A stretch of DNA of 64,000 bases from a phage, in the sequence record PZ296772.1; one strand, given 5' to 3'. This document shows, piece after piece, positions 5,774-59,201 of this stretch (position 1 is the stretch's first letter; each line of letters opens with the position of its first letter). The notes under the pieces are model-generated. The model saw only the letters and a list, made by a program, of their open reading frames with translations. It had not been told where the DNA came from and made no database searches. Made by a program: the position numbers and the translations under genes.

Positions 5774-8700
5774 CTAATTTAACCTGTGGTGGATTAATCG
5801 GGTCTCTAGGATTTCCCACGTTATCTAACAATCTTTCATTAACAAGCTCTCTAAATCTAGAGAACGTTGTACCTGATGCATCAAATAATGGGCTCATTGG
5901 CTTGCGTCGTTCGGACGGTAATTGTCCTTGGAAAATAGAGTTATCATTTTCTTCGTTATAATTTGCAGGTAAAGGGTATTCGATACCGGCATAAGGTCCA
6001 GCATCATAAATTACTTCACCTGTAACAGGATTGAATTCTACATTACCTTGAGGGTCTAAACGAGCGACGCGGTCTGCATATTCCGTAGGCAGTCCGGAAT
6101 CCCACTTATAATTTTTATATTTATTAATAATAGTTTCAACATGTTTAAGCGTTAATCCTGTATTAATAAACATTGTTAATAAGGTTATTGCAATAAATCC
6201 AAATCCTACCGGATGTACAAAACGTAGTACGTCAGATTTCCAACGAGAGGACGGAAGATTTGACTTTATTTTCATGACGTAATAAGCTCTACCACGATTA
6301 AAATAATCGATAGTGTTTTGGGCAAGTTCTTTACCTTTAATACCGCGAACTATTTCACCTTCAAAATCTGCTAGTCTTTCGGCTTTTACTTCTTGACCGA
6401 CTAAAAGCCTACCTAAAAGGTTATGAATAGTCACAGTCCATTGTAATTTACCTTTAGAATAGCTTCTTTCTAAATATGTAACATTACATCTACCTGTAGC
6501 GGTGTATATAGTTTGTCCAACCAAATCTTCACTTATAGAATCAGATTGAATTATGATATCGTACTCTGTTCCAGCAGATGACTCAATTTCCACTTCAACG
6601 TCTTCGTTATAAAGAACTTTAAACAAAAACTTATACGACGCTTCAGTTCCTTTAGTAGAATAAAAATCATAACTTCTAGACTCAAAGAACCTAGAAACTA
6701 AATCACGTTTCTCAGCATTCAAATAAATGTTCCGTTTATAAATTTCGGACCAAAGATATTCCCATGCGTGTTCTTCTCGTGGGTATTTATTTTTAATCAA
6801 ATTCAATAAGTTATTATAATGAGTCCCGTATCCATCAGAAAGATATTGAATATACGCTTCACAAAATGCTTCAAAGTTTGTATTATCCAACAGATAAGAC
6901 TCTGGCATCATTGTAGTGAGTAATGGGCGTAAATCCGGGTCAGCTAGACCTGTCTCTTCAACAGGAACCCAAGAAGTTTCTTTTTCTTGGTTTTGTAATG
7001 AGGCGGTCAAGAATACGTTAGTGGGCTTCCAAATTATAGAAACGTTATCTCTAACACGATAACTAAAATCGTAATATGAAATTATTTCACCTGATGATTT
7101 ATAAAACAACATACCAGATGCGTATTTTTTAAATCCAGTGAATTCTATATTCGGCATAACAATCTTACAATCGCCATCATTCCAGTATTCATGAACTTTA
7201 CGATCAGGTGAAGTGCTAGGGTGGCTTTCAACTACCTTTGTGTAAAGCAAATCAGAATAAATCACTACCGCTCTATCAGAGTTATTAATCCAAGAACGTG
7301 TGCCTGATTTTCTAGAATAACTAAAGAAAGGTTCTGCATAATACTGCATAGGAGTTGGTGAAAAAGTTTCCCAATTACTTTCTTCGTTTGATGCGAAAAT
7401 CATCATATGGTAATGTTTATCTGCGAGCCATTCTCTAGGATATTCATACTTAACTGCTCTTAAAAGTTCATACTTAGATTGCGTTTCTGGGTCGTCAACA
7501 ATATCAGATTCTAAAAATTTAAAATTACTAGAAGAGATATAAAGCTCAACACCATCAGTAGACATATTGGTGAAAGCCGGTTCTATACGACGGCGTTCTT
7601 CTTCGGTATTACCAAATATCCTTTTAAATGTTCCAGCGTCATGGTCTAAAACGTATACACCTTTATCAACGGAATCCAAAATAGGCTTTGTTCTTGGGTC
7701 GTCATTAACATTTTCGACTTCACCAATAATAAGAGCGAATATTCTTCCACCAACAGAATCCATTTTATAACAAACTGCTTTAGGGTTGCCTGTTATTGTA
7801 AACGTCTCGGGTTCAAACAACCGTTCGGAATAGGTCGGAGATAATGGATCTGAATCAATAGGAGCGTTACTGGTTTTAACGAAGCGAACTTTATCTCTGG
7901 CCGCAATATAAACATAGTCGTCATTACAAGTAATAGCTTCTGCAATACGTGATACGTTTCCTGGTAATGACGCGTATGTACCGAAAATCTCTACATCAAA
8001 ACCTAAATTTAATCGGTCCCCGATTTTAGCAAATGTTACATCTTGTGAACTGAAACGAACATCATCAGCAGACCAACGAATATCGGATGATTTACGCCCG
8101 TAAAAAATCTTATCATAGCCGAGCAAATACGTCGTATATTCTGATTGGTAATATACAGTTCGTGAAAGTGGATATCCTACACGGTCATTAAGCAATTTAA
8201 CCGCTTTCCATGTTTGGCCTTTATCATTAGACACTTTTACAATAGGTTGGAATCTTTCAAAAAGGTAAAGAATTCCTTCAGATTCCATTAGATATACTCG
8301 ATTTATATCTTTACATACGTCCTGGATATGCCCCTGGATTTCATGATACTGATTTTCACCAATTATAAAATTTCTAATCGATGACACATCGGTGTATGCA
8401 GGACTAAATTGGAACGACTCGCTCATCAGTGCTGCCATGATCGTGTCATTATTAAAATCAACGTAGTTTGTATTATTTTTTGTAAATTTTTCAGAAATAA
8501 ACTCGTTAGCTAATTGCATTTCAATCATATGTTGGAATGTGTAAGCGTTTATTTCAAATGTTTCAAACTCTTCGGTGTATCTCCAATCAGACTGCTCAAA
8601 TCCCTCCGCTGCTGTAGCCACACGCATCATATATGTTGTTAATGAATTTAAACCAGACTCAAAGAAATTGTTATCAGCGGTATATCCTAAATTAGTCCAT

Positions 8701-8864
8701 CTATAGCTATTACGGGGAATTGCTTCCCCATTAGCTGTTTTGGTCTCAGCTATTTCCACAAAATAGTAGAAATTAGCGCCAACCTCATCCCAGCGAATTT
8801 GAACTTGGTTTGCGGACAATTTAGATAATCTGAGACTCGTGACTGCTGGCGCTTTTACTGTCAT
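5766..8864 (-). CDS. 7: Baseplate wedge protein gp7
   Basis: 1032-aa ORF, same length as T4 gp7; ATGA overlap with gene 6 stop. Confidence 0.92.
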   Translation of the reverse strand: MTVKAPAVTSLRLSKLSANQVQIRWDEVGANFYYFVEIAETKTANGEAIPRNSYRWTNLGYTADNNFFESGLNSLTTYMMRVATAAEGFEQSDWRYTEEFETFEINAYTFQHMIEMQLANEFISEKFTKNNTNYVDFNNDTIMAALMSESFQFSPAYTDVSSIRNFIIGENQYHEIQGHIQDVCKDINRVYLMESEGILYLFERFQPIVKVSNDKGQTWKAVKLLNDRVGYPLSRTVYYQSEYTTYLLGYDKIFYGRKSSDIRWSADDVRFSSQDVTFAKIGDRLNLGFDVEIFGTYASLPGNVSRIAEAITCNDDYVYIAARDKVRFVKTSNAPIDSDPLSPTYSERLFEPETFTITGNPKAVCYKMDSVGGRIFALIIGEVENVNDDPRTKPILDSVDKGVYVLDHDAGTFKRIFGNTEEERRRIEPAFTNMSTDGVELYISSSNFKFLESDIVDDPETQSKYELLRAVKYEYPREWLADKHYHMMIFASNEESNWETFSPTPMQYYAEPFFSYSRKSGTRSWINNSDRAVVIYSDLLYTKVVESHPSTSPDRKVHEYWNDGDCKIVMPNIEFTGFKKYASGMLFYKSSGEIISYYDFSYRVRDNVSIIWKPTNVFLTASLQNQEKETSWVPVEETGLADPDLRPLLTTMMPESYLLDNTNFEAFCEAYIQYLSDGYGTHYNNLLNLIKNKYPREEHAWEYLWSEIYKRNIYLNAEKRDLVSRFFESRSYDFYSTKGTEASYKFLFKVLYNEDVEVEIESSAGTEYDIIIQSDSISEDLVGQTIYTATGRCNVTYLERSYSKGKLQWTVTIHNLLGRLLVGQEVKAERLADFEGEIVRGIKGKELAQNTIDYFNRGRAYYVMKIKSNLPSSRWKSDVLRFVHPVGFGFIAITLLTMFINTGLTLKHVETIINKYKNYKWDSGLPTEYADRVARLDPQGNVEFNPVTGEVIYDAGPYAGIEYPLPANYNEENDNSIFQGQLPSERRKPMSPLFDASGTTFSRFRELVNERLLDNVGNPRDPINPPQVKLDE

Positions 8865-21470: not shown

Positions 21471-21510
21471 TGTACAAGCACCAAGGATGGTGATACTATA
21501 GACTTATCAA
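21471..21510 (+). promoter_or_regulatory. Early promoter cassette (TGTACA -35, CACCA/TGGTG inverted repeat, TACTAT -10)
   Basis: -35 21471-21476, inverted repeat 21479-21492, -10 21494-21499. Confidence 0.5.
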
Positions 21511-39733: not shown

Positions 39734-39763
39734 CGAAACGAAATGAGTAAATTGGAGAATAAA

Positions 39764-40744
39764 ATGTTCAACGTTCAAATCAAAAAAGGTATCTATCGTA
39801 ATAACGAAATCTCCGGTTCTTATGTTGCCACAAAGACCTGGTTCCCGGCAAAGCTTAATCCTGAATGTTCCCACTTAGGTGACGGTAAAATTTTCGTTAT
39901 GATTGATGGTTCTGAACGTGGAGTATGGGTCTTCAAATCAGATATCGTAATGGAAGGAGCTGAGACATCACCAGTTGCAGTTGTTGAAAGCACTGAAGAT
40001 ATGAAAACTCGTATCAACAAACGCTTTAAAGTAATGAACATGATGACGAATGGCATTATCGATGGCAAAATTCGTTCACTCATTATTTCAGGTGCAGCCG
40101 GTATTGGTAAGACGTATTCTCTGGATAGAGCGCTTAATAATGCTAATGATAACGGTTTCATCAAATACAAAAGCATTAATGGTAAAATCTCAGGTATTGG
40201 CCTTTACGAACAACTTTGGCTCAACCGTGATGCAGACAGCGTTCTCTTAATCGACGACGTTGACGTATTCTCGGATATGGATATCTTGAACCTTCTTAAA
40301 GCAGCATTAGATACTGGTGATAAACGCAAAGTTTGCTGGAGCACTGCATCATCTTATCTTGATGATAAGGGTATTGATAAAGAATTTGAGTTTGAAGGTA
40401 CTATCGTTTTCATTACAAACGTTGATATCGATAAAGAGTTAGAACGTGGTTCGAAACTTGCTCCACACCTTCAAGCTTTAGTATCTCGTTCAGTGTATCT
40501 TGACCTTGGAGTACACTCTAATGAAGAGATTATGGTTCGAGTTGAAGATGTAATATTATCTACTGACATGATGCAGAAACGTGGTCTGACGGATGCAGAA
40601 ACGTATAAAGCATTGTCCTGGATGAAGGCTAACATATCTCGTCTTCGCAATGTGTCATTACGTACGGCTCTTTATGTAGCAGATTTTATTTCAACTGATA
40701 AAGATGGTTGGGAGGAAATCTCTGAAGTAACTTTACTGAAATAA
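39764..40744 (+). CDS. AAA+/P-loop ATPase
   Basis: 326-aa product from MFNVQIKKGIY; Walker A ISGAAGIGKTY, Walker B LLIDDVDVF; about 110-aa N-terminal domain. Confidence 0.6.
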   Translation: MFNVQIKKGIYRNNEISGSYVATKTWFPAKLNPECSHLGDGKIFVMIDGSERGVWVFKSDIVMEGAETSPVAVVESTEDMKTRINKRFKVMNMMTNGIIDGKIRSLIISGAAGIGKTYSLDRALNNANDNGFIKYKSINGKISGIGLYEQLWLNRDADSVLLIDDVDVFSDMDILNLLKAALDTGDKRKVCWSTASSYLDDKGIDKEFEFEGTIVFITNVDIDKELERGSKLAPHLQALVSRSVYLDLGVHSNEEIMVRVEDVILSTDMMQKRGLTDAETYKALSWMKANISRLRNVSLRTALYVADFISTDKDGWEEISEVTLLK

Positions 40745-41228: not shown

Positions 41229-41756
41229 ATGAACGCTAAAGATATTTTCAACCTGGTAAATTATAACGACGGTAAATTTAAATCTGAAGCACAAAGCAAG
41301 TTCTTTAATGACGTTGCTTATGGTAACGAGATTACCGTGGACGGAGGTCAGATTTTCAAATCTCGCTGGAATTGGATTGTTATCATCGATTCGGTTGGAA
41401 TTGTGGAAGTCTACAAAAACACTAACAAAAAACGTACATTATTCTGGTCTCGTGAAACTAACGAGCAGTACAAAAAGGATAAAGCATCTCGTTTATCCAA
41501 AGTAACCCAGGAAGATATCGAGTTTATCAAGAAAGATATCGAGATGTACGAAAATTTAATCGCTGAAGACCAGGCAGTACTCGATAAGTTTGATGAAATT
41601 AAAGCTTCTCGTGAAATCCCTGACTTCATGAAAGAAACAGTAAACGAACGATACGCTCTCACTTCAGAACGTATTGCAAACTATACAAAACAGAAAGCAG
41701 AACGTATTAGTACTCTTCGGAAATTTGAAGAACGTTTAAAGTCGGTTCACGCATAA
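41229..41756 (+). CDS. Hypothetical protein
   Basis: 175-aa ORF. Confidence 0.5.
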   Translation: MNAKDIFNLVNYNDGKFKSEAQSKFFNDVAYGNEITVDGGQIFKSRWNWIVIIDSVGIVEVYKNTNKKRTLFWSRETNEQYKKDKASRLSKVTQEDIEFIKKDIEMYENLIAEDQAVLDKFDEIKASREIPDFMKETVNERYALTSERIANYTKQKAERISTLRKFEERLKSVHA

Positions 41757-41758
41757 AC

Positions 41759-41790
41759 GCTTTACCCAAGGACGGGTTATAATGGTTTTG
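41759..41790 (+). promoter_or_regulatory. Middle-promoter-like element (MotA-box-like CGCTTTA + TATAAT)
   Basis: aaaCGCTTTAc about 12 bp upstream of TATAAT 41778-41783; resembles cassette at 59204. Confidence 0.4.
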
Positions 41791-41818: not shown

Positions 41819-42814
41819 ATGAGCATTACATCTGATGCGGTAAAACATGAAATTAACGGTTTATGTGCTTCACAGATTAAAGTGTGGTTTAAAGACCATA
41901 ACGATCGCAGAGCACTTAATTATGAGCAAATTGCTATCCAAGTTCATCAATTACTGACAAGTAAATTTGATTTTCATATGCCGTCTGAAATCTATACTAA
42001 TCTGCCGCGAGCACTTATTAAAGCGTGTAAAGGTTATGGAAAATCAATGGCTGACGGAATATTCAGCGCGCTGAATAAACTTAACGTTCTGTCGATGATT
42101 AACTCTAACAACATCCTGCGTAATCTAGGACGTACTGATTTGTTCGGTCGTGAACAGTGTAAAATGCCTTTGAAATGGATTGTTGCCCATCTTAACGAGA
42201 ACCAAACACGTTTTATGGCTGTAACAGCACGTTTACAAATGGGCCTAGATCGTCAGATGAACTTTAAAACTCATCCACGTTATTCAGGTTCAACAAACTT
42301 TTATAAATGTGAGCTTCAAAAGGTTGGTGGCAAAACTGTCTTAGTAGTTCGTGTAACGTTTGAAGGACGTCGTCAAGGATATTTTGACATAATCGGCTCT
42401 GGACTTAAACATTGTGGATTTATCGACGAAGTTGATATCAAGCGAGACGGCATTGGATACCGTATTGGGTATGTTTGTACTCTTAAAGAAGAGATTTCAG
42501 GACCAGCACCAGGACTAAAAGACGTTAGATATAAAGACGAGCTCGTTGAAGAAATAAAAGAAGTTGAATATGATATCAACCAAGAAGATGCTCTTAAAGA
42601 CCTTATTGATGAACTGAACCAAGACGTTATTCCGGTTCAGAAATTTGAATCAAAACATGCTGAGCAAATCAAATACTTTGAAGCTTTGATTAACGAACTT
42701 AATGTAACTATTCAACAGACTGATGATGAAATCTCACGATTAGCGGGCTTAAACGGTAAAAATAAAACAGAACGAGCTAATCTTATTCAAGTAGTAAAAC
42801 TTCTTAAGGAATGA
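41819..42814 (+). CDS. Hypothetical protein with C-terminal coiled coil (1 of 3 tandem)
   Basis: 331-aa ORF; about 230-aa N-domain then heptad-rich C-terminus. Confidence 0.5.
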   Translation: MSITSDAVKHEINGLCASQIKVWFKDHNDRRALNYEQIAIQVHQLLTSKFDFHMPSEIYTNLPRALIKACKGYGKSMADGIFSALNKLNVLSMINSNNILRNLGRTDLFGREQCKMPLKWIVAHLNENQTRFMAVTARLQMGLDRQMNFKTHPRYSGSTNFYKCELQKVGGKTVLVVRVTFEGRRQGYFDIIGSGLKHCGFIDEVDIKRDGIGYRIGYVCTLKEEISGPAPGLKDVRYKDELVEEIKEVEYDINQEDALKDLIDELNQDVIPVQKFESKHAEQIKYFEALINELNVTIQQTDDEISRLAGLNGKNKTERANLIQVVKLLKE

Positions 42815-42845
42815 TGTACAACCAAGGATGGTTGGAGTATAATAA
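42815..42845 (+). promoter_or_regulatory. Early promoter cassette (TGTACA, CAACCA/TGGTTG inverted repeat, TATAAT)
   Basis: -35 42815-42820, -10 42838-42843, inverted repeat 42819-42834. Confidence 0.55.
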
Positions 42846-42869
42846 ATTTTTCAACATGAGGAATATAAA

Positions 42870-43829
42870 ATGGCTTTTATTACACGTAGAGAACTTATCA
42901 AAGAATTTACCTCGAACGCATATACTCCAGGACCTAATCCTATCCGTATGCCTGTAAAGACTCCTGAAGAGATTGAGGAAATCTGTTCATATTATGGGAT
43001 TAATTCTCGTATGTTTACTCAATTTGAATGCGTTACTAACACACCCGTTAAAGAGTTCATTAAAAATGGTGAGTTCAGCCGTTTATTAGCCAAACAGAAA
43101 CTTCGTAATTTTTGTATCGGCGGCTGCGGACAATATTTTGCTAAACAGTTCCGAAATAACCTTAACAATCTGATGGCCATTGCTTCTCGTATTCGTCCTC
43201 AAGCAATTAACATGAAACATTTGAAATATACTTACGATAAGTTAGAAATCATGGTTATCAGTGAGAATGAGTTCACTCTTACATATAAACCTAAGAATGA
43301 TAACGTTGCTCGTGTATTCCACCAAGCGCTAGAAGTGTTAGGCGATAATATCCATGAGATTAAAGCAATTTATTCTCGTGAGCTTAATATTATCGACCCT
43401 ATCAAGAATAAGGGCCATATCGCTATCCAGGCTCGTGTATCTATTGGTAAAAAGGTTCCTGCGCCATGGTGGCACAAAGACTCTGAATACTATCAAAATC
43501 TTAAAAAGGAAAATGCATTGTTTGAAGGCAATATTACAGCAACACCAGTCGGTAATGCAGAGGTTCTAGGCGCATATTCTCCAGCACAATCTGGTATGTT
43601 TAAAGGTTTGCCAAATGTGTGCAAACTGTCGGCAGTAAAACTAAATGTTTCTAATGACCTTCTTCCGGCAGAAGATTATCATTACAACCAAATCAAGGCT
43701 ACTGTAGACCAACTGTCCGTTGAACTTGACAAAGCACAAGCTAAGCTTCGTGATGCTCAAAGTGTTGTAACGAATCTCCAGTTGCAGTATTCTAAACTTT
43801 TTAATGCAATGAATGCATTAAAATCATAA
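42870..43829 (+). CDS. Hypothetical protein with C-terminal coiled coil (2 of 3 tandem)
   Basis: 319-aa ORF. Confidence 0.5.
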   Translation: MAFITRRELIKEFTSNAYTPGPNPIRMPVKTPEEIEEICSYYGINSRMFTQFECVTNTPVKEFIKNGEFSRLLAKQKLRNFCIGGCGQYFAKQFRNNLNNLMAIASRIRPQAINMKHLKYTYDKLEIMVISENEFTLTYKPKNDNVARVFHQALEVLGDNIHEIKAIYSRELNIIDPIKNKGHIAIQARVSIGKKVPAPWWHKDSEYYQNLKKENALFEGNITATPVGNAEVLGAYSPAQSGMFKGLPNVCKLSAVKLNVSNDLLPAEDYHYNQIKATVDQLSVELDKAQAKLRDAQSVVTNLQLQYSKLFNAMNALKS

Positions 43830-43833
43830 AACG

Positions 43834-43865
43834 GTTTACAACCAAGGATGGTTGGAATATAATGA
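43834..43865 (+). promoter_or_regulatory. Early promoter cassette (GTTTAC, CAACCA/TGGTTG, TATAAT)
   Basis: -35 43834-43839, -10 43858-43863; near-identical core to cassette at 42815. Confidence 0.6.
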
Positions 43866-43891
43866 ATCTATCTTAACGAGAGGAAAATATT

Positions 43892-44842
43892 ATGACACGT
43901 TCACATTACATTGAATACTTTGCCGGGCTTATCGCTAACGTTCATGCCCAGCGCGCTTCTGGTGCACTAGGATTTGATGTTCCACACCGAGATGTAGTAA
44001 GTGGTATTCTTCGTGATTTTGGTACATACACAGGTCAAGAAAATCATATCTGTAAAGATACTCAAAATGCATATTCTCATTCATTAGGGACACTGCTTCA
44101 ATGGTTCAAACGTTCTCGTTTATTATCTTCTACTGTAGCTCGTGATAACATCAAAAACTTTATGAAGCCGAGCTTTATTAAATCTGTGACATCTAAAACC
44201 GATTTGGTTGAATTCACTATTGTTAATGATGTTAAAAAGACTCATTTGGCTGATTGGTTATCTACCATTCCTGAAACTAAATTTGCTGATAAATTTGCTT
44301 GTGAATTCAATAACCAAGTGAATATGCTTTTTAAACATTCTCGTAAATTATTCACGGGCGGTGATGGTCGTACAAATAAAGTTCATGTTAAAGATTGGGT
44401 TACTGCAGTATTCAAACCAACCGGTAATGGTAACGCATCATTATCAATTGATATCCAGGTTCCTTATTACTACTCACGTAATCTCGGTACCATGAAAGCT
44501 GAAGAAATTAATAAGCATAACAAAACCGTTCGTTCGTTGTCTTATAAACTTATTACATTGTTAGAGACTATGGATGTTGTTGAAACGTTCGACGAGTCCG
44601 AAGATAACGGTTCAATGTTATACAGTTCTCGCACCCGAATTAAGCTGAGGAACCCTAACGAGTATAAACTTAAGACTATTAAAGAACCTAAAGTAGAAAA
44701 AGTTGACAACTTGAGCGAAGAACGTGAGTACCTCAAATCTCGTCTGAAAGAAGTCGAAGCCCAGATTAAAGAACAGACTAAATCGTTAAAAGCTCTGAAT
44801 GCGAAAGCGGATGGTTTACGAAATGCCATTGAGGTGTTATAA
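43892..44842 (+). CDS. Hypothetical protein with C-terminal coiled coil (3 of 3 tandem)
   Basis: 316-aa ORF. Confidence 0.5.
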   Translation: MTRSHYIEYFAGLIANVHAQRASGALGFDVPHRDVVSGILRDFGTYTGQENHICKDTQNAYSHSLGTLLQWFKRSRLLSSTVARDNIKNFMKPSFIKSVTSKTDLVEFTIVNDVKKTHLADWLSTIPETKFADKFACEFNNQVNMLFKHSRKLFTGGDGRTNKVHVKDWVTAVFKPTGNGNASLSIDIQVPYYYSRNLGTMKAEEINKHNKTVRSLSYKLITLLETMDVVETFDESEDNGSMLYSSRTRIKLRNPNEYKLKTIKEPKVEKVDNLSEEREYLKSRLKEVEAQIKEQTKSLKALNAKADGLRNAIEVL

Positions 44843-45147
44843 TGAATCTACGTCTTCTAGAGGATATTGATATGAGCACTAATCATGGCTTAGTTAAGTT
44901 TATTGATGATAGTTCAAAGATTGAATTTGTTCAGCGAGATAAAATCCTCGGTGAAGAAGAGTTCGTTCCTCCGGCATGGAACGAAATAATGAAAATGGTT
45001 GAACGACGTGAAAATGCTGCCAAATCGGCAGCAAAACATCCATGCCCAGAATGTGGAACTATCCAGGTCCAACTGGTTAACTGGACCACTGATAACTTGA
45101 AATTGAAATGCCGTAAATGCTTCCACAAATTTGAGAGAACAATATAA
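44842..45147 (+). CDS. Zinc-ribbon protein
   Basis: 101-aa ORF with CPECG...(16)...CRKC. Confidence 0.5.
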   Translation: MNLRLLEDIDMSTNHGLVKFIDDSSKIEFVQRDKILGEEEFVPPAWNEIMKMVERRENAAKSAAKHPCPECGTIQVQLVNWTTDNLKLKCRKCFHKFERTI

Positions 45148-45560
45148 TGAGATATAGCCTTCGTTGTTTTATCGCAGCTTTAGTTTTTGCCATTATTCCA
45201 TTCATTTGGAACAGCCAGAATACTTACATGGAAACTAAAGTAATTCCTGTGGAGGTAGTGGAATTAATCTCAGGCCAATCTACAGGAAAATATTCTAAAT
45301 TAGAATTTATTGCAGTCTATAAAGATGAGCAAGGACGAGTTTTTGACAGGCATGTATCACCATCGTTTTATACGCTTCTGAATAAAGGTGATACGATAGC
45401 TATAGAAATTCGTGAGATGGATATTCAGCAAAATACTCGAGATAACATCATTTGGTTCTTTGGTACAGTGCTGATGTTTTCTATCGGTATCACAGGTTTT
45501 ATTACATGTATTGTATTTGGCATTGCATATTTAATCGATGAAAGGAAAAATAATGTTTAA
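45147..45560 (+). CDS. Membrane protein (N- and C-terminal TM helices)
   Basis: 137-aa ORF. Confidence 0.5.
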   Translation: MRYSLRCFIAALVFAIIPFIWNSQNTYMETKVIPVEVVELISGQSTGKYSKLEFIAVYKDEQGRVFDRHVSPSFYTLLNKGDTIAIEIREMDIQQNTRDNIIWFFGTVLMFSIGITGFITCIVFGIAYLIDERKNNV

Positions 45561-45816
45561 AGTGTACGGGTATGACTCTACTATTCATAAATGCATTTAT
45601 TGTGATAATGCGAAACGATTGCTGACTGTTAAGAAACAGCCATTCGAATTCATTAATGTTATGCCAGAAAAAGGTGTGTTCGATGATGAGAAAATTGCTG
45701 AGCTTCTGGTTAAGCTTGGACGTGAATCACAAGTCGGATTGACTATGCCACAGATATTTGCTCCTGATGGAAGTCATATTGGTGGATTTGACCAACTGCG
45801 AGAATATTTTAAATGA
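45553..45816 (+). CDS. nrdC: Glutaredoxin/thioredoxin NrdC
   Basis: 87-aa product MFKVYGYDSTIHKCIYCDNAKRLL... with CxxC active site; close to T4 NrdC from memory. Confidence 0.9.
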   Translation: MFKVYGYDSTIHKCIYCDNAKRLLTVKKQPFEFINVMPEKGVFDDEKIAELLVKLGRESQVGLTMPQIFAPDGSHIGGFDQLREYFK

Positions 45817-53271: not shown

Positions 53272-53511
53272 ATGGCCCAAGAATTAGATTTTATCAAATT
53301 CAAAAAACACCTCGACGTTAAAATTGGGGATTCAATTGTTAGGATTGAGTATGACATTTTAACAGATGCTATTACTGTTAGTTGTGATGGAAATAGTTTC
53401 AGCTTCGATACAACCGAAAACAAATACCCAATCTATAAAGGCATCTTTGATATGGGTGTTGATATCACTCCACGTGATACAAATTACTTACTTTTCATGC
53501 TTAAAAAATAA
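53272..53511 (+). CDS. Hypothetical protein
   Basis: 79-aa ORF. Confidence 0.5.
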   Translation: MAQELDFIKFKKHLDVKIGDSIVRIEYDILTDAITVSCDGNSFSFDTTENKYPIYKGIFDMGVDITPRDTNYLLFMLKK

Positions 53512-57516: not shown

Positions 57517-59201
57517 AATCATTTAAATTAAATCGTGTTCGTTATCAAAACATCATGTCGGTAGGTGGGAATCCTATTGATATCCAATTAGATAAAGTCC
57601 AAAAGACATTAATCACCGGTAAAAACGGCGGTGGTAAATCTACGATGTTAGAAGCCATTACTTTCGGACTTTTCGGTAAACCATTTCGTGATGTTAAGAA
57701 AGGACAAATCATTAACAGCACGAATAAGAAAGAGCTCTTAGTTGAGCTTTGGATGGAATTCGATGATAAAAAATACTTCATTAAACGCGGCCAAAAGCCC
57801 AATATTTTCGAAATCTCCGTTGACGGTGTTCGTCTTGATGAATCTGCCAGCAGTCGGGACTTCCAAGAAGAATTTGAACGTAGCATCGGAATGTCATACG
57901 CGTCTTTTAAACAAATCGTTGTGCTTGGGACGGCAGGGTATACCCCTTTCATGGCTCTTAGCACCCCTGCTCGTAGAAAACTTGTCGAAGACCTTTTAGA
58001 AGTCGGCACACTCGCTGAAATGGATAAAATCAATAAGTCTCAAGTTCGAGAACTTAATTCCCAGGGACAAGTTCTAGATGCCAAGAAAGATGGTATTATC
58101 CAACAAATTAAGATTTATAACGAGAATATTGAACGTCAAAAGAAATTATCTGGTGATAATGTAGCGCGTCTACAGAATATGTATGACGATCTAGCCAAAG
58201 AAGCTCGTTCATTAAAAGCAGAAATCGAAGAAGCTAATGAGCGACTACTTAATATCGTTCTTGATGAAGACCCTACTGAGGCATTCAACAAGATCGGACA
58301 AGAAGCATTCTTGATTAAATCTAAAATTGACTCATATAACAAAGTTATTAAGATGTATCATGATGGCGGTACATGTCCTACTTGTGCATCACAGTTGCAC
58401 CAGGGTGATCCTATTGTCTCTAAGATTACCGATAAGCTTCACGAATGTAATCACTCATTCGAGCAACTTACATGTCACAGAGATAATCTGAGTGTCCTAG
58501 TGGACGAATATAGAGCTAATGTTAAGACTAAACAGGACCTTGCATCTGATATTCGTACCAAGAAACAAGCAATGATTGCCACTATTGATAAAGCTAAGAA
58601 AGTTAAAGCTGCAATAGAGCAAGCCTCAGCAGAATTTATCGACCATGCTGATGAGATAGCTTTGCTTCAAAAAGAACTTGATAAAATCATTAAAACAAAA
58701 TCAGACATCGTTCTTGAAAAATACCATCGTGGTATTATCACAGATATGTTAAAAGATTCTGGTATTAAAGGTGCTATCATTAAAAAATATGTGCCTTTGT
58801 TCAACAAGCAGATTAACCATTATCTTAAAATCATGGAAGCTGATTACGTGTTTTCTATTGACGAAGAATTCAATGAATCTATAAAATCACGTGGTCGTGA
58901 AGACTTTAGTTATGCTTCATTTAGTCAAGGTGAAAAGGCCCGTATCGATATCGCACTGTTGTTTACATGGCGAGATATTGCTGAAAAGGTCTCTGGTGTT
59001 AAAATCAACACTCTGATTCTTGATGAGGTTTTTGATGGTGCTGTCGATTCTGAGGCTGTTAAGGCTATAGATACCATCCTTGGTAGTTTACAAAATACTA
59101 ATGTGTTCATTATCTCTCATCGAGATCATGACCCTCAACGTTATGGACAACATCTTCAAATGAGCAAAGTTGGACGATTTACTGTAATGACTGTTTCATA
59201 A
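57513..59201 (+). CDS. 46: Recombination endonuclease subunit gp46 (Rad50-like ATPase)
   Basis: 562-aa ORF: Walker A GKNGGGKST, central coiled coil with zinc hook CPTC, signature FSQGEKARIDIALL, Walker B LILDEVFDG. Confidence 0.95.
   Translation: MKSFKLNRVRYQNIMSVGGNPIDIQLDKVQKTLITGKNGGGKSTMLEAITFGLFGKPFRDVKKGQIINSTNKKELLVELWMEFDDKKYFIKRGQKPNIFEISVDGVRLDESASSRDFQEEFERSIGMSYASFKQIVVLGTAGYTPFMALSTPARRKLVEDLLEVGTLAEMDKINKSQVRELNSQGQVLDAKKDGIIQQIKIYNENIERQKKLSGDNVARLQNMYDDLAKEARSLKAEIEEANERLLNIVLDEDPTEAFNKIGQEAFLIKSKIDSYNKVIKMYHDGGTCPTCASQLHQGDPIVSKITDKLHECNHSFEQLTCHRDNLSVLVDEYRANVKTKQDLASDIRTKKQAMIATIDKAKKVKAAIEQASAEFIDHADEIALLQKELDKIIKTKSDIVLEKYHRGIITDMLKDSGIKGAIIKKYVPLFNKQINHYLKIMEADYVFSIDEEFNESIKSRGREDFSYASFSQGEKARIDIALLFTWRDIAEKVSGVKINTLILDEVFDGAVDSEAVKAIDTILGSLQNTNVFIISHRDHDPQRYGQHLQMSKVGRFTVMTVS

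Follow-up and report, generated by a model that had tools for sequence, protein, structure and literature searches.

Among the accessory genes of bacteriophage T4, nrdC.5 has a described role in overcoming host immunity. A T4 clone from which nonessential genes had been deleted does not plate on Escherichia coli ECOR17, nor on MG1655 provided with the ECOR17 dsr1 gene, and the expression of T4 nrdC.5 alone from a plasmid restores plating on cells carrying the sirtuin defence Dsr1 (PMC9391042). Here, we analyse positions 41,819 to 44,842 of a 64,000-nucleotide stretch of phage DNA (sequence record PZ296772.1; the whole of this stretch is referred to as the window), where three open reading frames (ORFs) related to nrdC.5 and its T4 neighbours lie head-to-tail on the plus strand. 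The explanation that we favour, with a little more than even confidence, is that these genes constitute an array of divergent paralogues, whose bodies would act in counter-defence, whose tails would oligomerise, and whose expression would depend on promoters of the PnrdC.7 and PeSL types.

The array has several described counterparts. Like the genes of the T4 internal proteins, TifA, Dmd and gp49.2, its members are non-essential, diverge fast, and sit in hyperplastic-region clusters whose content is lost or amplified under selection (PMC9391042, PMC13096335, PMC4122927). However, the products of those genes are mostly small, single-domain proteins lacking a conserved coiled-coil tail, and a tandem family of paralogues of ~300 aa was not described among counter-defence proteins of this kind in the literature searched. 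As for transcription, the hyperplastic regions of T4-type phages contain PeSL cassettes, repeated units that combine an early promoter with a stem-loop and have a Shine-Dalgarno sequence and a start codon after them (PMC2839356, PMC4122927). These cassettes have the form TTTACW-N17-TAYWAT in T4/PST, are associated with indels, and exist in Mot-box versions named PmSL (PMC4122927). The T4 middle promoter PnrdC.7 has also been mapped, with its start site at 53325 (PMC2988021).

The three genes and their counterparts in T4-type phages

The locus is 97-98% identical to that of many Mosigvirus (RB69-like, T4-type) coliphages, which places the window in this genus. The three ORFs, encoding 331, 319 and 316 aa, have exactly the coordinates given in an earlier sequence-only reading of the window, and are flanked by nrdC.8 on one side and by nrdC.2/nrdC on the other. 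In curated records, their products are similar to T4 NrdC.6, to RB69p097 (named "nrdC.5" in the RB69 record) and to T4 NrdC.3, respectively. Judged by sequence, the trio is orthologous to T4 nrdC.6, nrdC.5 (Pfam DUF7235) and nrdC.3, each protein having its own PHROG and its own Pfam family. Since these are known accessory ORFs of T4-type phages, the trio does not represent a new system.

Gene 1 (41819..42814, plus strand, 331 aa) was assigned by family searches to the NrdC.6 family (PF26899, phrog_2257). It matches phrog_2257 over residues 1-331 with an E-value of 2e-127, PF26899 is assigned to its close homologues in precomputed annotation, and it is 29% identical to T4 NrdC.6 (BLASTP E 5e-18), both genes having their place after nrdC.8. 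Gene 2 (42870..43829, plus strand, 319 aa) represents the NrdC.5 family in its Mosigvirus form and carries DUF7235 (PF23882; E 1e-118, 396.6 bits against a cut-off of 30, residues 15-318), its PHROG being phrog_2351. Its identity with T4 NrdC.5 amounts to 25% over 302 residues (BLASTP E 1.6e-10), and phmmer links the two proteins in both directions with E-values of 4e-10 to 7e-10. At the BLAST level, gene 2 is found in Mosigvirus only (133 records). Gene 3 (43892..44842, plus strand, 316 aa) belongs to the NrdC.3 family (PF26897, phrog_1435), which is paralogous to T4 NrdC.4; it matches phrog_1435 with an E-value of 3e-102 and is 56% identical to T4 NrdC.3 (E 3e-118). Sequence searches of the PDB gave no matches.

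T4 itself contains a run of four genes of this kind, nrdC.6 (275 aa), nrdC.5 (340 aa), nrdC.4 (333 aa) and nrdC.3 (308 aa). The order is NrdC.6-NrdC.5-NrdC.3 in Mosigvirus, NrdC.6-NrdC.5-NrdC.4-NrdC.3 in Tequatrovirus, and NrdC.6-NrdC.5-NrdC.4 in both Dhakavirus and Gaprivervirus. The synteny that the sequence-only reading had proposed to look for thus extends to no fewer than four genera, between which the list of members varies; its idea of a triplication gives way to an array of three or four genes whose content varies by genus. The array sits between nrdC.10 and nrdC, in the hyperplastic region, and natural deletions show that its genes are dispensable: phage ACG-C40 has a deletion running from inside nrdC.5 to inside nrdC.3, by which most of nrdC.5, nrdC.4 and nrdC.3 is gone, and phage Pinarejo has lost nrdC.6 except for a remnant of the tail.

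In other Straboviridae, the slot between nrdC.10 and nrdC/gene 49 is occupied by proteins of ~325-350 aa, likewise with a heptad helix at the end, such as those of Merlin (334 aa), Boboto (323 aa), AS6 (352 aa), PhT2 (335 aa) and Acj9 (Acj9p122, 325 aa). Slot proteins with C-terminal heptad helices were found in Moonvirus, Jiaodavirus, Karamvirus and Acinetobacter phages.

Several features of the records deserve a mention. Many GenBank records name every nrdC.x gene, including the trio, 'thioredoxin', and these labels are an annotation error spread from the gene names, the redoxin being nrdC alone (window 45538-45816). In KT184310 (phage ATK48), the depositors marked a 'direct repeat sequence1 possible binding site of StbAB' inside the NrdC.6 homologue. 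In PV648364, recorded as a 'T2 escape mutant' (L011 in our comparison), nrdC.7, nrdC.6, nrdC.4 and 49.2 are each split into two ORFs, which could reflect either sequencing errors or real mutations of the escape mutant. T4 NrdC.6 ends aberrantly in the reference record (NC_000866, 52066-52893, 275 aa) with the residues ...FNNMMMKFSDYLD, and the conserved tail of the family, QYDDEIFRLSGLSSKAKSEREKLIKIVDLLKS, can be read in another frame just upstream of T4 nrdC.5. The NrdC.6 proteins of AR1 and ACG-C40 are intact, with 294-295 aa; from the sequences, the loss of the tail in T4 is a frameshift that affects either the reference strain itself or the sequence determined from it. Upstream of the array, NrdC.10 (window 39743-40744) is a P-loop/AAA-like protein found across Straboviridae and in some jumbo phages (1312 records), being conserved far more widely than the array that follows it.

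Divergent bodies and constrained tails

The sequence-only reading had suggested an old triplication or a modular assembly of the three genes. Pairwise BLASTP detects no similarity among the three proteins, and word-indexed searches for homologues return close relatives only. Family alignments were built from ten loci plus the retrieved homologues and compared with hhalign; P0056, a deletion chimera of NrdC.5 and NrdC.3 that was present in both alignments and had contaminated the first score between these families, was removed before the final comparison. The profiles of NrdC.4 and NrdC.3 match at 98% (E 5e-13), and on these sequences their homology is certain. NrdC.5 matches the NrdC.3 and NrdC.4 profiles in the globular part at 89% in local and 97% in global mode (E 2e-6), and is probably homologous to them. 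For NrdC.6 against the merged profile of the other three families, the probability is 42% (E 2.7e-4, score 36.9, 95 columns), and its membership of the same ancient, extremely divergent family is plausible. In the controls, reversed queries score 14-20, and the unrelated neighbours NrdC.8, NrdC.10 and NrdC.2 score 9-19 with E-values of at least 0.07; NrdC.8 was considered as a short member of the family and rejected on this value. An old duplication thus stands in graded form after the profile-profile check, certain for NrdC.3 and NrdC.4, probable for NrdC.5 and plausible for NrdC.6, but not as a triplication.

Weak as they are, the alignments of NrdC.6 fall in the body rather than in the tail and keep a consistent register, residue ~82 of NrdC.6 corresponding to ~60 of NrdC.5 and ~69 of NrdC.3. 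Two motifs, 'LLS..A+..I+N[FY]' and 'NQ.R..A..ARL..G.D+Q', are aligned in the same order and followed by a beta segment. The AlphaFold models of NrdC.6 and NrdC.3 are closely parallel in their predicted order of secondary structure: three helices come first, then a helix-turn-helix with the first of these motifs, and, beyond a loop, a long helix, a beta hairpin close to residues 162-179, a linker and a terminal helix. In gene 1, the layout comprises a helical N-domain, a beta-hairpin, a low-confidence linker of ~60 residues and a C-terminal helical hairpin. The model of gene 3 has an overall predicted local distance difference test score (pLDDT) of 56, with values below 50 in its middle part, and its search against BFVD gave nothing informative beyond orthologues. 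The significant BFVD matches of the NrdC.6 model are all proteins of ~300-335 aa from other T4-like phages: one of IME523 (1e-7), a 325-aa protein of Acj9 (8e-6) and one of Mineola (3e-4).

The Acj9 match is very probably the syntenic Acj9p122 mentioned above, which has the architecture of the trio and forms a two-sequence family with its homologue PhT2_335. This family aligns with the joint NrdC.3/NrdC.4/NrdC.5 profile over 203 columns (E 8e-4), Boboto_323 matches NrdC.3/NrdC.4 with 87% probability, and AS6_352 aligns with NrdC.6 over 205 columns (E 8e-4). The NrdC.6 family itself is narrow: since an exhaustive search of 1.84 billion representative proteins yielded only six clusters, no deep profile of it can be built.

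The tails were examined with a simple heptad score, using 300 shuffles per protein as the null. The strongest heptad segment lies at the extreme C-terminus in each case, at residues 281-309 in gene 1, 267-319 in gene 2 and 279-314 in gene 3, and is equalled by 8, 0 and 1 of the 300 shuffles, respectively; with the same score, the neighbours NrdC.10 and NrdC.2 show no comparable segment. AlphaFold places terminal helices at 281-308 and 313-330 in gene 1 and at 275-315 in gene 3, the two proteins modelled. In gene 1, the tail (residues 281-331, 42659..42811, plus strand) consists of the heptad helix 281-309, a G-N-G break and the helix 313-330. In gene 2 (residues 267-319, 43668..43826, plus strand) the heptad helix is uninterrupted, and in gene 3 (residues 275-316, 44714..44839, plus strand) there is a single long helix with a heptad pattern. 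All three proteins therefore end in a heptad helix, as had been read from the sequence, though its length is 30-53 residues and not a uniform 50-60.

In all four families, conservation between genera is higher in the last 45-50 residues than in the remainder of the protein. Gene 1 and its orthologues of Tequatrovirus, Dhakavirus and Gaprivervirus are 58% identical in the tail and 18-23% in the body, and the corresponding values are 24-39% and 14-17% for NrdC.5, 56-67% and 39-46% for NrdC.4, and 70-83% and 51-72% for NrdC.3. The linker that separates the two parts is rich in indels and modelled with low confidence. A functional importance of the tails would fit their higher conservation, and a variable body joined to a constrained tail is the pattern expected of a recognition domain tethered to an interaction or oligomerisation element.

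Aberrant forms of these proteins also occur. Three sequences, H65, P0061 and P0062, match NrdC.6 in the tail only. In ACG-C40 (4805-5213) and P0056, deletions join the frames of NrdC.5 and NrdC.3 at non-equivalent positions, and the resulting chimeric ORFs can contaminate family alignments.

Two classes of promoter in the array

The intergenic sequences upstream of all three genes read as quoted in the sequence-only reading, which had taken them for three promoters of the same type. The element before gene 1 differs in class, having a 12-nt spacing and the geometry of a MotA box. This middle-promoter-like element (41755..41783, plus strand) consists of AAACGCTTTA at 41755-41764, a 13-bp gap, and TATAAT at 41778-41783, so that only 12 nt separate CTTTAC from TATAAT. 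The MotA box has the consensus (a/t)(a/t)(a/t)TGCTTtA and lies 12+/-1 bp from a good -10 (PMC2988021); AAACGCTTTA deviates from it by one mismatch (C for T). Orthologues of the element are found in T4, Dhakavirus and Gaprivervirus, and the T4 one, which follows nrdC.8 and precedes nrdC.7, has the mapped PnrdC.7 start site, 53325, as the seventh base after its TATAAT. No promoter is annotated in this region in the T4 GenBank and RefSeq records.

Both promoters follow nrdC.8 and combine a GCTTTA box with a TATAAT at 12-13 bp. They differ in the first base of the box, CGCTTTA in the window and TGCTTTA in T4, and in the gene served: the T4 promoter drives nrdC.7 and then nrdC.6, whereas that of the window would drive the nrdC.6 homologue directly, because nrdC.7 has been relocated downstream of nrdC.2. 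By sequence, the element is the orthologue of the MotA-dependent PnrdC.7, and its likeness in sequence and position to that mapped promoter indicates that gene 1 is served by a middle promoter, an activity that is predicted for the phage of the window. The relocated gene encodes a 137-aa predicted membrane protein homologous to NrdC.7 (window 45147-45560), and in T4 it lies between nrdC.8 and nrdC.6.

Genes 2 and 3 are preceded by early-type cassettes. The one before gene 2 (42815..42843, plus strand) has the form TGTACA-N17-TATAAT, and the one before gene 3 (43834..43863, plus strand) the form GTTTACA-N17-TATAAT, with an A/T-rich sequence upstream. Their near-identity, as proposed from the sequence, is borne out by the 18-mer ACAACCAAGGATGGTTGG, which is identical at 42818 (42818-42835) and at 43838, within the gene 3 cassette, and occurs exactly twice in the 64-kb window, with 0.06 chance matches expected. 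In a consensus scan the two sites score 10/12 and 11/12, respectively. Since the same scan finds 25 promoter-like sites in the region and 25.8 in shuffled sequences, it proves nothing alone, and the support for the promoters comes from conservation and orthology.

The sharing of a promoter type had been read as one sign of an old triplication or modular assembly, and as evidence of the old event it fails. In the phage moha, the repeat extends over 82 nt (89% identity), running on into duplicated sequence from the end of the gene that precedes it; sequence comparison shows no promoter before nrdC.5 in T4, Dhakavirus and Gaprivervirus; and gene 1 has a promoter of another class. The shared promoter thus records no ancient duplication, and on sequence grounds the near-identity of the two cassettes is the result of recent copying. 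Compared with moha, the -35 of the cassette before gene 2 is cut by a deletion, ATGTAC standing for GTTTAC: the lineage of the window has lost a 66-aa membrane ORF, and the right end of this deletion falls inside the -35 hexamer. The ORF, encoding a predicted membrane protein of 66-71 aa, is present between the NrdC.6 and NrdC.5 homologues of moha (L006, 6975-7175), Dhakavirus and Gaprivervirus (L007, 6668-6883; L008, 6672-6887; L010, ~8524-8739), and is absent from T4.

The cassettes of the window correspond to PeSL: they are repeated early promoters of the T4/PST type with a Shine-Dalgarno sequence and start codon behind them, and are likewise found in a hyperplastic region, beside indels, in an array whose content varies by genus, and a Mot-box version precedes gene 1, as in PmSL. 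They differ in the location of the palindrome, since the published layout has a stem-loop, taken to be a terminator, immediately before the promoter, whereas in the window the palindrome CAACCA-AGGA-TGGTTG is placed inside the spacer between -35 and -10 (42819-42834 before gene 2; 43839-43854 before gene 3). A further early-type match, GTTTAC-N18-TATAAT at 44814-44843, inside the end of gene 3, is probably not a promoter of nrdC.2 and was rejected as such; its TATAAT overlaps the stop codon of gene 3 and the start of nrdC.2 (TATAATG), and at the equivalent place T4 retains the GTTTAC, which codes for G-L-R there, but lacks the -10.

A palindrome of this kind recurs in the spacers of early and middle cassettes of four genera, with an invariant centre, CCA-AGGA-TGG, and complementary but variable arms. 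The arms are CAACCA/TGGTTG in the window; CATCCA/TGGATG and CTTCCA/TGGAGG in Dhakavirus and Gaprivervirus; and AGCCA/TGGCT, CCACA/TGTGG and ATACCA/TGGTAT in T4. The exact 10-mer core has five copies in the window, where palindrome sites lie, apart from the two already given, at 41764-41777 (a weak form, ACCC-AAGGAC-GGGT, in the gene 1 promoter), 21479-21492 and ~59072-59085 (minus strand). Orthologous sites are found in T4 (L003) and in the loci L007-L010. The arms covary strongly: over eight instances, pairing holds in 96% of the cells and both sides have changed in three of the pairs, figures in which only the comparisons of orthologous sites are unbiased, because part of the set was picked by a scan that required a hairpin. 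The cassette palindromes fold with an unremarkable -6.9 kcal/mol (z -0.4 to -1) and have no U-tract. An Rfam scan of the region found no RNA family, and nothing relevant to the palindrome core turned up in the literature searched.

GGAG and TATAAT usually come after the palindrome, as at 42835-42846 in the window and in FP43, PhAPEC2, moha, E33, VR20 and T4. As RNA, the sequence after the hairpin, GGAGUAUAAUA, shares 9 of 11 positions with the RegB/S1 consensus GGAGRAYARAA (consensus from PMC1702504), and the window copy before gene 3 has GGAA, the poorly cut form, instead of GGAG. The readings of the palindrome as a CsrA site and of GGAG plus TATAAT as a RegB site, where read-through transcripts might be processed, remained a resemblance only and were not retained.

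A likely role in counter-defence and the competing explanations

The published action of nrdC.5 against Dsr1 leads us to regard the array as one of diversifying counter-defence proteins with oligomerising tails. For the array as a whole, a counter-defence role is the most likely on the grounds of homology, of architecture, of genomic context and of the way in which the proteins evolve. Counter-defence genes abound in the region, as is shown by the neighbours of the array, gp49.2, which inhibits OLD (PMC13096335), and Pin, to which curated phage records assign the inhibition of the host protease Lon. The trio is the Mosigvirus version of a nrdC.6-nrdC.5-(nrdC.4)-nrdC.3 array of non-essential prereplicative genes. 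Each member combines a fast-evolving alpha/beta body of ~260 aa, a disordered, indel-rich linker and an amphipathic helix of 30-50 aa whose conservation is better. The body is predicted as a helical bundle with the conserved 'LLS..A+..I+N[FY]' helix-turn-helix and a long helix, and then beta strands. Each body would bind and neutralise a separate immune protein of the host, on the model of T4 NrdC.5, which overcomes Dsr1, and the tail would make the protein oligomeric. Gene 1 would be expressed from the PnrdC.7 orthologue, and genes 2 and 3 from two early cassettes of the PeSL kind, which may double as recombination points for the gain and loss of array members.

Gene 2 resembles T4 NrdC.5 in its position in the array, its body-linker-helix architecture and its early/prereplicative character, and differs from it in being 17% identical in the body and 39% in the tail, as well as in having its own promoter, which T4 nrdC.5 lacks. 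Genes 1 and 3 are orthologues of T4 NrdC.6 and NrdC.3; NrdC.4, the paralogue of NrdC.3, is not found in Mosigvirus. Databases treat the NrdC.3, NrdC.4 and NrdC.6 families as unrelated, and their relationship and common architecture are proposed in this analysis. From these likenesses we infer that gene 2 would retain activity against Dsr1, that genes 1 and 3 may have an anti-defence function of their own, and that the proteins presumably oligomerise through their tails.

Four considerations weigh against this explanation. Functional data exist for a single member in a single phage, T4 NrdC.5, to which gene 2 is merely 25% identical. The link to NrdC.6 rests on an E-value of ~3e-4 obtained with shallow profiles (effective number of sequences, Neff, ~2-4), and the NrdC.3 and NrdC.6 models are of medium quality (pLDDT 56 and 65) and cannot be superposed on each other. 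Besides, NrdC.6, NrdC.5 and an NrdC.3/NrdC.4 member constantly occur together in four genera, as might also be expected of proteins with a joint action.

This last point is the basis of a different proposal, in which the trio would form one hetero-oligomeric complex, held together by the coiled-coil tails and devoted to a single task of host takeover, rather than a set of independent inhibitors. The three kinds of member occur in the same order in 4/4 genera sampled, all within one prereplicative transcription region, and their tails are the best conserved part and end alike, in patterns such as L..A[IL]..L[KN]. Nevertheless, T4 nrdC.5 alone on a plasmid suffices against Dsr1 (PMC9391042), ACG-C40 and Pinarejo are viable without most of nrdC.5, nrdC.4 and nrdC.3 or without nrdC.6, respectively, the T4 reference NrdC.6 has lost its tail by the frameshift, and the tails of different families align poorly (11-19% identity between those of NrdC.3 and NrdC.4), all of which makes such a complex improbable in our view. 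We give a slightly better, though still low, chance to unrelated bodies having been joined to similar coiled-coil tails and placed next to each other by cassette shuffling in the hyperplastic region, so that the resemblance in size and architecture, at least that of NrdC.6, would come from convergence or modularity. The lack of pairwise BLASTP similarity, the separate PHROG and Pfam families, the hhalign probability of only 42% for NrdC.6, the existence of tail-only fragments and of a NrdC.5/NrdC.3 chimera, and the gene exchange that PeSL cassettes are known to mediate in the region (PMC4122927) would all agree with it. However, the NrdC.6 alignments lie in the body and not in the tail, keep their register across three families, clearly exceed the controls with reversed sequences and unrelated genes, and go along with the same predicted order of secondary structure, and the chimeras are simple deletions rather than functional domain swaps. 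That these are nucleic-acid-binding or regulatory early proteins, for example helical DNA-binding dimers unrelated to host defence, seems to us very improbable.

Returning to the array of divergent counter-defence paralogues, a broader version of it may be put forward as a tentative conjecture, which we consider rather doubtful. NrdC.3-NrdC.6 and the syntenic, tailed ~330-aa proteins of other Straboviridae would constitute one ancient, rapidly diversifying family of immune antagonists, each body being directed at a different defence sensor, with Dsr1 as the first known target. Through their conserved coiled-coil tails, they would attain the oligomeric state that the engagement of oligomeric defence proteins requires, and the array would be remodelled through the promoter/stem-loop cassettes.

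T4 and its relatives are the main model of the phage-host arms race, and most genes of their hyperplastic regions are without an assigned function. To what was known of these, the present analysis adds that the trio has the same architecture as the anti-Dsr1 protein NrdC.5 and probably a common origin with it, that the tails are the constrained part, and that the promoters, which fall into two known classes, were copied recently, their near-identity reflecting this copying of cassettes and not the history of the genes. It also corrects the widespread misannotation of these proteins as thioredoxins. If NrdC.3-NrdC.6 are indeed one family with the anti-Dsr1 architecture, three to four orphan genes per phage, in several hundred sequenced coliphages, would become candidates for counter-defence, and the conserved tail would offer a handle on their mechanism.

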